Source: Candidatus Komeilibacteria bacterium (GTDB taxonomy: Bacteria > Patescibacteriota > Patescibacteriia > UBA1558). From it: 64,000 bases of DNA. This document shows, piece by piece, positions 11,745 through 30,656 of the stretch. Below the pieces are notes generated by a model that had not been told where the DNA came from, made no database searches, and worked only from the letters and a program-made list of their open reading frames with translations. Made by a program: the position numbers and the translations under genes. Location: NCBI GenBank assembly GCA_048538235.1, contig JBLYPX010000001.1, positions 787,011-851,010 on the forward strand. The letters run 5' to 3'. Every line of letters starts with the position of its first letter. Positions within the stretch are counted from its first letter, which is position 1.

Positions 11745-11955
11745 AAAGCCATCACAATGTGATGGCTTAAAATTTGCTCATCAGCCTATCGCGATCAATA
11801 ATTATTACTTGACCACCAAGTGCGTCGGTGACGTTCTTTTGCCGTCTTAAACCTTAGCTTCTTGTCTGGGTATGAGATTCCCTTTAGGCAATAATGATTG
11901 TTCAAATTCAGATAAGTAGAATCAGATATGCACGTGTGCCTTTCAGCCAATGAGC
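11745..11955 (-). ncRNA. candidate sRNA or 5' leader upstream of the ydjM-like gene (about 200 nt, GC-enriched). It ends in hairpin GCCAUCAC-AUU-GUGAUGGC plus U-run at 11742-11766
   Basis: Minus-strand -10 TATAAT at 11962-11967 with palindrome 11974-11989 at the -35 position. Transcript GC is clearly above the local background. A terminator-like hairpin and U5 sit immediately before the TTG start of the downstream gene. Identity unknown. Confidence 0.3.
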
Positions 11956-11973
11956 AATATAATTATACTACAA

Positions 11974-11989
11974 TGTTCCACGTGGAACA
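11974..11989. repeat. perfect 16-bp palindrome TGTTCCACGTGGAACA (copy 1 of a TGTTC-N6-GAACA family)
   Basis: Directly read. Located after the tRNA-Ala terminator on the minus strand and at the -35 position of the minus-strand promoter reading into 11745-11955. Confidence 0.8.
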
Positions 11990-12012: not shown

Positions 12013-12089
<77 letters not shown>

Positions 12090-12133: not shown

Positions 12134-12149
12134 TGTTCTACGTGGAACA
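12134..12149. repeat. palindrome copy 2, TGTTCTACGTGGAACA (one mismatch)
   Basis: Lies between divergent promoters: 3 nt upstream of the -35 of the plus-strand ncRNA promoter and about 45 nt upstream of tRNA-Ala. Confidence 0.7.
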
Positions 12150-12151
12150 AT

Positions 12152-12180
12152 TTGACAAGTAGATTTTATTAATATAATAT
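12152..12180 (+). promoter_or_regulatory. promoter for plus-strand ncRNA: -35 TTGACA (12152-12157), 17 bp, -10 TAATAT (12175-12180)
   Basis: Read directly. An alternative -10 TATAAT lies 2 nt upstream. Confidence 0.45.
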
Positions 12181-12186
12181 ATTCTT

Positions 12187-12500
12187 AATGGAAAATGAGA
12201 GGTTTGGCGAACGCTGTTGTAGCGGGTGCAGCTAATGAGGCTATCTGTCTCAAATGCGCAAATGCTCATCAGGGTTGGTTCAGATAAGATGCCGCTTCAG
12301 AGCGAGTTATGCAGAGACAAGGGTGGAATATTAAATTGTTTTGCAGCAAGGCGATATTCTATGCAACTCCCAAGTTAATGCTCAATTCAGAGTCTGAATA
12401 CCTTATTTCCTTAAGGGAATGAGTCTGAACAGGAGAGCCTAAACGCTATAACAAAACCTTCTCTAATTAACCCCTGTCGCAACGTCGATGGGGGTTTTTT
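12187..12500 (+). ncRNA. candidate structured ncRNA of about 300 nt with its own promoter and a strong intrinsic terminator (12471-12500). Identity unresolved
   Basis: No ORF of 60 aa or more. GC is clearly above flanking DNA. 5' GAGAGGUUUGG can pair with 3' AAACCUUCUC (closing helix). Terminator CCCCUGUCG-CAACGU-CGAUGGGGG plus U6. It lacks the RNase P P4 motifs (GGAAAGUCC), the tmRNA CCA-ending tRNA-like end, and a clean SRP GGAA/AGCAG helix 8. Confidence 0.45.
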
Positions 12501-12512
12501 GATTATCTATTA

Positions 12513-12528
12513 TGTTCCACGTGGAACA
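12513..12528. repeat. palindrome copy 3, TGTTCCACGTGGAACA (perfect)
   Basis: Follows the tRNA-Arg terminator (ACACC-UUAUU-GGUGU plus U7) on the minus strand. Same module layout as copy 1: tRNA-CCA, hairpin, U7, palindrome. Confidence 0.8.
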
Positions 12529-12553: not shown

Positions 12554-12628
12554 TGGTGCCCCCGGTAGGAATCGAACCTACATCTAGACGTTAGGAGTGT
12601 CTTGTTCTATCCATTGAACTACAGGGGC
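12554..12628 (-). tRNA. tRNA-Arg (anticodon CCU), CCA encoded
   Basis: RC reads GCCCCTGTAGTTCAATGGATAGAACAAGACACTCCTAACGTCTAGATGTAGGTTCGATTCCTACCGGGGGCACCA. Anticodon loop CU-CCU-AA. T-arm GTAGG/CCTAC. A31-C39 mismatch in the anticodon stem. Confidence 0.85.
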
Positions 12629-27094: not shown

Positions 27095-27565
27095 TTAATT
27101 TATCACACAACGACTCTCGTCTAGACCATTGGTCCAGCAATGGAATCCACTAGGACAATCTGAATCAGAACTACATTCATTACCACCACCCCTAGTTGAA
27201 TTGTATACATTTGTTATTACAAAGTCAGTTATTACATAGGCTGCTAAAACTATGATTAAACCTATAATGGCGTTTATAATTCTTTTTTTAGCTGAGTCGA
27301 TAGCGGTTGAATTACCACCAGCTGTCATCCATTGAAAACCAGACCATATAATAAGGATAACAAATACAAGACCTAAAAAGCCAAGTAGAATTTGTATAAA
27401 ATTTATTACTATATTTTCTACATCTGTTGATGTGGTAGATCCGGTAACACCTTCTTGAACATAATCAAATTCACTGTTCACCAGGTCGCCTAAATCTGCC
27501 TGAGCTAAAGGTGTGAACAGAACAAAAGAAAATATAATTAAAGTAAGAAGGATAATTTTTTTCAT
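27095..27565 (-). CDS. VirB2/TrbC-like (T4SS-type) pilin paralog P1, subfamily A, with Cys-rich C-terminal module
   Basis: 156 aa. Signal peptide (…PLAQA/DLG), variable acidic/T-rich segment, then the conserved hairpin core IQILLGFLGLVFVILIIWSGFQWMTAGGNSTAIDSAKKRIINAIIGLIIVLAAYVITDFVI. C-terminal GGGNECSSDSDCPSGFHCWTNGLDESRCVIN has 4 Cys. Confidence 0.65.
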   Translation of the reverse strand: MKKIILLTLIIFSFVLFTPLAQADLGDLVNSEFDYVQEGVTGSTTSTDVENIVINFIQILLGFLGLVFVILIIWSGFQWMTAGGNSTAIDSAKKRIINAIIGLIIVLAAYVITDFVITNVYNSTRGGGNECSSDSDCPSGFHCWTNGLDESRCVIN

Positions 27566-30047: not shown

Positions 30048-30656
30048 TTATTCAGATTGACAGCAAACAATATTGTTTGGACCAAAACACATATTACTTA
30101 CAATTGTCCCCTCGACACATTGCGTAGAGTTTCTGCAGGCATAACCTCCACCCTCTGGCGGAGTAGCATCACATTTTTGTACACAGTCATTATTTATACA
30201 TATGCCCAAACCACTTCTACAAGAATCATTTTCTTGAAGACCATCGCAAGGTCCAGCAACTTGAGTGTTGGTGTTTTCTAATGACCTGGTAGAGATAGAA
30301 ACTAAAATTGTTTGAACAATTAACCACGCGCCCATCACTATAACAATTCCAATCACAGTATTTACCATTATATCTTTACCCTTTTCAATTTTTCCCGATT
30401 TACCACCAGATGTTAGCCACATAATTCCACCGAATATGAAAAAGAGTAGAGCAAAGCTACCAAGTATACCTAATCCCCATTTGCTTAAGACTACAAAGGT
30501 GTTAAAACCCTGATCAAGAGAACAGCTACCGTCTGCAATACAAGAGTCTTCGTAGTCTGTTGATCCTTCAGGGTAGAAACTTGAGTCTTGCAAAACTGAA
30601 GCACTAGCAAGAAGCGGTGTGACAAGTAAAATTAGAACAATTATTAATTTTTTCAT
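30048..30656 (-). CDS. VirB2/TrbC-like pilin paralog P8, subfamily B, with 66-aa Cys-rich (11 Cys) C-terminal module
   Basis: 202 aa. Signal peptide. Variable region with 2 Cys. Core GGIMWLTSGGKSGKIEKGKDIMVNTVIGIVIVMGAWLIV. C-terminus PCDGLQENDSCRSGLGICINNDCVQKCDATPPEGGGYACRNSTQCVEGTIVSNMCFGPNNIVCCQSE. ATGA overlap with the upstream SBP gene. Confidence 0.6.
   Translation of the reverse strand: MKKLIIVLILLVTPLLASASVLQDSSFYPEGSTDYEDSCIADGSCSLDQGFNTFVVLSKWGLGILGSFALLFFIFGGIMWLTSGGKSGKIEKGKDIMVNTVIGIVIVMGAWLIVQTILVSISTRSLENTNTQVAGPCDGLQENDSCRSGLGICINNDCVQKCDATPPEGGGYACRNSTQCVEGTIVSNMCFGPNNIVCCQSE

Follow-up and report, generated by a model that had tools for sequence, protein, structure and literature searches.

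Stand-alone bacterial small RNA genes, which combine a promoter, a GC-enriched non-coding body and an intrinsic terminator, are the closest described counterparts of the locus analysed here, and small RNA screens in AT-rich genomes have met the same signature as a GC-rich stretch in an intergenic region adjoining tRNA genes. The interval between tRNA-Ala(GGC) and tRNA-Arg(CCT) in the genome of a Candidatus Komeilibacteria bacterium displays all of these traits, but its predicted product (about 310 nt) is longer than most trans-acting small RNAs (50-250 nt), and it differs from stand-alone small RNAs in being found in one genome only, in presenting an accessible 5′ AUG and in having no identified target or chaperone. 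Type I toxin mRNAs of the hok/aapA1 kind offer a second comparison, since they too are highly folded, measure about 300 nt and combine a small ORF near the 5′ end with a long-range 5′/3′ helix adjoining the start region and a location in a variable region without detectable homologues; unlike them, the candidate has no transmembrane helix in either of its small predicted peptides, shows no convincing antisense promoter or terminator and leaves its first AUG unsequestered. Among the housekeeping RNAs, 6S RNA forms a rod of about 180 nt, a hairpin opened by a large central bubble, and RNase P RNA of type A (RF00010) falls into the same size class as the candidate (about 300 nt), whose closing helix is moreover flanked by GGAAAA and ACAAAA, recalling P4 with J3/4 and J2/4. 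The host also belongs to a group in which Rfam often misses RNase P RNA: in 10 of 35 complete CPR genomes this RNA scored below Rfam thresholds and had to be sought by sub-threshold searches, and some CPR RNase P RNAs lack P12 (Lui et al., PMC8172020).

The locus and dnaA are about 3 kb apart in the window, by which we mean the whole 64,000-nucleotide stretch of DNA analysed, and the surroundings of the locus (gene order yidC, yidD, rnpA, rpmH, dnaA, dnaN) adjoin the replication origin. The proteins encoded around the locus assign the window to Candidatus Komeilibacteria (Patescibacteria). The bactofilin encoded in the window is identical to NCBI MFW0862693.1. The features discussed below are collected in Table 1. 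The promoter places the -35 hexamer TTGACA at 12152-12157 and the -10 hexamer TAATAT at 12175-12180, and a perfect TATAAT (12173-12178, 15-nt spacer) provides an alternative -10. Promoter-like sites of this kind are not enriched (9 against 7.8 expected in 1.7 kb), and the candidate promoter alone is statistically undistinctive in such AT-rich DNA. Terminator-like sites, by comparison, are enriched (6 against 0.9 expected); the terminator hairpin spans 12469-12496, reaches -15.7 kcal/mol on its own and runs into a T6 tract at 12495-12500. Since no other plus-strand gene is available for this terminator to serve, its presence implies a plus-strand transcript starting inside the interval, with a predicted start at about 12187/12188, a predicted end at about 12500 and a length of roughly 310 nt. 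The GC content of the body is 0.43 compared with 0.34 for the window, which ranks in the top 2.5% among 300-nt windows, and the longest ORF is 50 aa. The interval thus carries the mark by which stand-alone ncRNA genes are recognised, an own promoter together with an own Rho-independent terminator in an intergenic region. An earlier sequence-only reading had described a TTGACA-17-TAATAT promoter, a 5′/3′ closing helix, a terminator made of a 9-bp stem plus U6, a raised GC content and no ORF of 60 aa or more, and every one of these elements was recovered.

Table 1. Features in and around the interval between tRNA-Ala(GGC) and tRNA-Arg(CCT), ordered by position in the window.
Feature	Positions	Strand	Description or basis
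ncRNA-X, unannotated RNA-like unit	11746-11958	-	body about 190 nt, 12-13-bp closing helix
parS1	11975-11988		palindrome GTTCCACGTGGAAC
tRNA-Ala(GGC)	12013-12089	-	conserved left anchor of the slot
parS2	12135-12148		GTTCTACGTGGAAC; one mismatch to the palindrome; left cassette boundary
Candidate promoter, TTGACA/17 nt/TAATAT	12152-12180	+	sigma-70-type; read from sequence
Candidate RNA body	12187-12466	+	three predicted domains within the closing helix
Possible leaderless micro-ORF, MENERFGERCCSGCS plus stop	12188-12235	+	15 codons; six-frame translation
Closing helix, 5′ strand, GAGAGGUUUGGCG	12197-12209	+	pair probabilities 0.71-0.96
5′ irregular hairpin domain	12210-12276	+	predicted fold
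3′ branched domain	12278-12430	+	closed by GUUCAGA/UCUGAAC, helix probability 0.93
Closing helix, 3′ strand, CGCUA UAACAA AACC U UCUC	12444-12463	+	base-pair probabilities
Intrinsic terminator	12469-12500	+	11-pair stem (9 core pairs), then T6
parS3	12514-12527		GTTCCACGTGGAAC; right cassette boundary
tRNA-Arg(CCT)	12554-12628	-	conserved right anchor of the slot

In the predicted fold, GAGAGGUU UGGCG pairs with CGCUA...AACC-U-UCUC to close the body. The 5′ domain ends in a tip hairpin (UGAGGC/GUCUCA, 12236-12252) with a probability of 0.99. The inner helices of the 3′ branched domain (12296/12393 and 12304/12384) reach just 0.46-0.49, and alternative pairings are possible in this domain among its three UUCAGA and two UCUGAA segments. 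For the body alone, the plus strand folded at -85.6 kcal/mol, with a z-score of -3.09 against shuffles, and the minus strand at -60.4 kcal/mol, with a z-score of +0.09. The fold of 320 nt gave z = -4.2, with the terminator hairpin supplying about 18 kcal/mol of an excess of 20 kcal/mol. When the window, mostly coding, was scanned at regular intervals, an equal energy excess was reached by 7-9% of 300-nt windows, and a strand asymmetry as large was observed in about 5% of control 300-nt windows; the ensemble diversity, at the 14th percentile of shuffles, is unremarkable. Because 7-9% of ordinary 300-nt windows fold equally well, the thermodynamic calculations support a plus-strand RNA structure only modestly. 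The plus-strand-specific predicted fold is the part of the earlier proposal of a structured RNA that is borne out.

Codon usage, scored with a log-odds model for which 31 long ORFs of the window served as the training set, was negative in all six frames (best -0.27, compared with +0.45 ± 0.20 for real genes), which fits the view of the locus as an independent plus-strand transcription unit without a protein-coding signal. Searches of Pfam and PHROGs with every frame of the candidate returned no match, and neither did exact look-up of eight small ORFs. Two small frames nevertheless deserve mention, the 15-codon micro-ORF listed in Table 1, which lies beyond the reach of codon statistics, and a 30-aa ORF at 12195-12287 (codon score -0.17), and no transmembrane helix was found in either peptide. 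The AUG of the micro-ORF (12188-12190) lies 7 nt past TAATAT, and the predicted fold leaves it unpaired. A Shine-Dalgarno (SD) core precedes just 2 of 37 confident genes of the window and a -10-like hexamer stands 6-9 nt before the ATG in 12 of the 37, a signature of leaderless mRNAs which implies that such mRNAs are widespread in this genome. The condition under which the sequence-only reading would have given up its RNA, a conserved ORF with an SD, is accordingly ill-suited to this organism. With SD sequences so nearly absent, a 15-codon frame starting at 12188 makes the micro-ORF a live rival, and an accessible 5′ AUG in a genome that uses leaderless starts counts against a purely non-coding RNA, as its translation would be expected.

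No known RNA family was recognised at the locus. Rfam 15 at the gathering threshold detected three tRNAs and nothing else in the whole window; at E<=5 across the window it returned tRNAs and noise, and at E<=10 on the candidate region (467-nt and 292-nt inputs) noise only. ARAGORN likewise reported three tRNAs and no tmRNA across the window, and the tRNA-like acceptor/T-arm domain of tmRNA was not found by ARAGORN or Rfam. The sequence-only reading had dismissed RNase P RNA and tmRNA, correctly on these data, had kept SRP and 6S RNA as candidates and had suggested a search of Rfam for all four. That search matched none of them: Bacteria_small_SRP and Bacteria_large_SRP, models that centre on the conserved domain IV, gave no hit at E<=10 and neither did any other family, and 6S RNA gave no Rfam match, the predicted fold being a three-way junction of about 280 nt and not a rod, so that SRP and 6S RNA are no longer viable. 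The RNase P models RF00010 and RF00011 gave no match at the gathering threshold or at E<=10, a result to be read with the caveat that diverged CPR forms may score very low. The conserved RNase P elements CR-I (GAGGAAAGUCC) and CR-V (ACAGAA...GGCUUA) were both missing from 12152-12500 when up to 2 mismatches were allowed, and a loose resemblance to them is limited to UGGAAAAUGAGAGG and ACAAAACCUUCUC.

Homologues were sought with nhmmer in 148 related or fetched loci, comprising 80 yidC-anchored genome loci, 19 syntenic Komeilibacteria loci reached via homologues of the DAGK-like neighbour and 49 metagenome loci with a parS beside a tRNA T-arm, and the candidate was found in none of them. Searches of the window and all fetched loci with blastn, tblastn and nhmmer revealed no homologue, including no paralogue in the window; blastn against phages and plasmids was empty, degenerate structure-aware DNA patterns had no match on viral and metagenome contigs, and the concatenated six-frame translation, including the micro-ORF frame, had no homologue among 5.8 billion protein clusters. 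A survey of the window for partner proteins (RT, TnpB/IscB, Cas, Ro, ParB) showed housekeeping genes only. The earlier suggestion of a lineage-specific RNA therefore overstates the spread of the candidate, which is so far unique to one genome, and the lack of a homologue in the collections searched weighs against the RNA reading.

Homologues of the DAGK-like protein encoded next to the slot were used to gather syntenic loci from nearer and more distant relatives, and the comparison revealed that the flanking genes are colinear and that the content of the slot differs in every relative. L084/L085, with a DAGK-like neighbour 98% identical to that of the window, carry a 116-aa membrane ORF on the minus strand; L086 (87%) has tRNA-Ala(CGC) only; L144 (83%) has a minus-strand ORF that by eye resembles a small membrane protein; L081 (79%) has a 142-aa NlpC/P60-like ORF and a partial tRNA-Arg copy; L146 (76%) has a 141-aa ORF with no family match on record and tRNA-Ala(CGC); L083 (69%) has an Rce1-like gene and two NlpC/P60 genes; and L082 (66%) has CHAP, tRNA-Ala(CGC), a 154-aa ORF and about 1.6 kb more. 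The candidate was not found by nhmmer in the slot of any of these eight loci, not even in that of L084/L085. In junction alignments, the homology shared with L084 and L144 extends from tRNA-Ala slightly beyond parS2 and begins again exactly at parS3, which defines 12150-12511, with promoter, body and terminator, as a strain-specific cassette.

The slots of the relatives offer several further observations. Small cell-wall hydrolases (NlpC/P60, CHAP) and an Rce1/CPBP-like membrane protease recur in L081, L082, L083 and L146, and the cargo of the relatives is plausibly linked to an epibiotic lifestyle or to immunity. The 116-aa cassette gene of L084 has a textbook AAGGAG SD, unlike the norm of the genome, and is for this reason probably foreign. 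Partial or nested copies of the 3′ half of tRNA-Arg(CCT) lie beside the intact gene in L081 (5103-5160) and L122 (3690-4110). Such partial tRNA copies beside an intact gene are classic scars of tRNA-gene integration, which marks tRNA-Arg(CCT) as a hot spot for integration among these CPR lineages. The region 3540-5190 of L082 contains about 1.6 kb of slot DNA without a called gene, part of it markedly GC-richer than its surroundings, and this part may be a frameshifted foreign gene. The assemblies L087, L090-L094, L145, L147 and L148 break just upstream of the bactofilin gene; the break points, which come from independent short-read assemblies of related strains, lie near the tRNA-Arg position of longer contigs, as would fit a slot that contains repeats or varies between strains.

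The boundaries of the cassette coincide with chromosomal centromere sequences. The ParB-binding parS consensus is given in the literature as TGTTCCACGTGGAACA or TGTTNCACGTGAAACA, and the cassette-bounding palindromes are, on sequence grounds, canonical parS sites; their treatment as recombination or attC-like sites was dropped once they had been matched to this consensus. Three parS sites within 550 bp of one another, and within 3-4 kb of dnaA, punctuate the tRNA/ncRNA cluster, and one further near-match in 64 kb (0.02 expected) lies inside a FemAB-family gene. The arrangement is like that of chromosomal parS/ParB clusters near oriC in matching TGTTCCACGTGGAACA exactly or with one mismatch and in its proximity to dnaA, and such clusters account for the boundaries of the cassette but not for the RNA. 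No other ncRNA lying between parS sites is known to us. Since parS2 is only 3 nt away from the candidate -35, and 1 nt away from a -35-like hexamer in the divergently oriented promoter of tRNA-Ala, ParB bound there could affect both promoters. Similar palindromes are also interspersed in the tRNA-Arg/tRNA-Ala clusters of other low-GC CPR contigs (L124, L129, L142, L122); palindrome matches in high-GC genomes fall at or inside recF near the start of gyrB, that is, in the origin region, and allow nothing to be inferred for the candidate locus. The three parS copies of L084 (at 788, 945 and 1423) all read GTTCTACGTAGAAC, a symmetric change from CC..GG to CT..AG that suggests concerted evolution of the sites, perhaps along with ParB. 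The parS of L086 reads GTTCCGCGTGGAAC, and those of L144 read GTTCCCCGTGGAAC and GTTCTACATAGAAC.

A second unannotated unit of like design, ncRNA-X, lies on the other side of tRNA-Ala. Its -10-like element TGTAGTATAAT is placed just past parS1, its terminator occupies 11768-11746, its fold has a z-score of -3.9 and it has no match in Rfam. It is kept in L084 at roughly 80% identity and is missing from L081, L083 and L086. Comparison of the window with L084 at 44 predicted pairs revealed 4 double-compensated changes, 7 one-side changes and 0 broken pairs, so that ncRNA-X has better comparative support than the 12187-12500 candidate. The compensatory changes also indicate that RNA genes of this design are real at the locus.

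Taken together, we give about an even chance to the reading that the cassette encodes an accessory RNA of about 310 nt that is strain-specific, transcribed independently and most likely non-coding and trans-acting, in a hypervariable slot that recombination has repeatedly rewritten. The cassette would then be a self-contained transcription unit between the two tRNA genes, bounded by two parS, and the transcript from about 12187/12188 to about 12500 would be a stable RNA. Such an RNA would act in trans, in a regulatory, antisense or protein-binding capacity, and would not be a housekeeping ribozyme or scaffold. ParB on parS2 could plausibly throttle the candidate promoter together with the divergent tRNA-Ala promoter, and the cassette probably arrived via recombination anchored in the flanking conserved tRNA and parS sequences. 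That it represents the founding member of a new class of structured RNAs of about 300 nt, carried as parS-cluster cassettes with a promoter gated by ParB, seems to us improbable; its novelty is limited to that of an orphan example of the familiar stand-alone bacterial ncRNA gene.

Two other readings, each of which we regard as unlikely though worth serious weight, would dispense with an accessory non-coding RNA. The transcript could be a leaderless mRNA for a micro-protein, either the Cys-rich 15-aa peptide or, less likely, the product of the 30-aa ORF, with a structured 3′ UTR of about 230 nt. The rarity of SD cores, the frequency of -10-like hexamers before the ATG of window genes and the unpaired AUG so soon after TAATAT all speak for such an mRNA, as does the fact that the other cassettes of the slot are protein genes; on the other side, the frame has 15 codons only and would leave a very long structured tail untranslated, an ATG within the 4-nt range would arise by chance in about 7% of cases (an estimate from base composition), codon usage is unsupportive and the protein clusters searched hold no homologue. 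The cassette could equally be a functionless remnant of horizontally acquired DNA, a decayed gene or leader that has retained a promoter-like match and a terminator at a recombination hot spot. Its restriction to one genome, its foreign-looking GC content, a folding stability that is normal for the genome and the integration scars of the slot (the partial tRNA-Arg in L081 and the nested tRNA-Arg fragments in L122) would all suit a remnant, but it has no DNA or translated similarity to protein genes or to cassettes of related slots, its promoter-body-terminator architecture is intact and correctly oriented, and the strong strand asymmetry of the fold is unexpected for decayed coding DNA. Ribosome-mediated transcription attenuation, in which a Cys-rich leader peptide controls the terminator, was suggested by the leader-like 15-aa ORF with 3 Cys in its last 6 codons and by the alternative-pairing segments and then the terminator that lie 3′ of it. 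In constrained folding, the terminator hairpin remained intact under every tested masking of the 5′ ORF region, and the best competing duplex (-10.9 kcal/mol) falls short of the hairpin (-15.7 kcal/mol); moreover, the terminator is followed by no co-oriented gene but by parS3 and then the convergent tRNA-Arg. The attenuator model, which we consider highly improbable, was rejected on the constrained folding and on this lack of a downstream plus-strand gene.

A highly diverged housekeeping RNA missed by Rfam, mainly RNase P RNA and also SRP, 6S or tmRNA, is very unlikely. The case for it draws on the sub-threshold RNase P RNAs of CPR genomes, on rnpA nearby and on short colinear RNase P resemblances (UGGAAAAUGAGAGG, GGGUGCAGCUAA, GCAGAGACAAGG, AGCAAGGCGAUAU, GAAUGAGUCUG and ACAAAACC), which we take to be a lead and not a test, and it is met by the lack of any RNase P, SRP, 6S or tmRNA match at E<=10 on the 292-nt input, by the negative ARAGORN result and by CR-I and CR-V remaining unmatched within 2 mismatches. 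The putative P4 5′ strand would begin about 10 nt after the predicted start, with the promoter and then the divergent tRNA gene upstream, and the AT-rich promoter in this position leaves no room for P1-P3. The strong helix 12278-84/12424-30, which comes after a CR-IV-like segment and has its partner strand (12278-84) downstream of the putative P4 strand, is nested and hence cannot serve as the P2/P4 pseudoknot, and the AGCAAGG segment lies within a hairpin, not after P12. Unlike RNase P RNA, an essential single-copy gene that close relatives should share, the candidate thus lacks P1-P3, GGAAAGUCC, the P4 pseudoknot topology and an Infernal match, and it shows no conservation among close relatives; its absence from the slot in eight relatives, among them the strain with the 98% identical neighbour protein, argues against a housekeeping RNA of any kind. 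Threading of the candidate onto RNase P RNA from consensus motifs was dropped as pareidolia, the topology being inconsistent and P1-P3 missing. That the candidate is the RNase P RNA of this organism in a form without P1-P3 has at most a very slim chance.

The main practical value of the analysis is negative, in that annotation of the locus as RNase P, SRP, 6S or tmRNA is to be avoided. If transcribed and functional, the RNA would join a small number of accessory non-coding RNA candidates described in Patescibacteria, a group with a nearly unexplored RNA biology, and the origin-proximal centromere/tRNA cluster would be a swap site for accessory cargo. Elsewhere in the window, two genes resembling TrbC/VirB2 type IV secretion pilins (27095-27565 and 30048-30656) were observed amid a housekeeping region.
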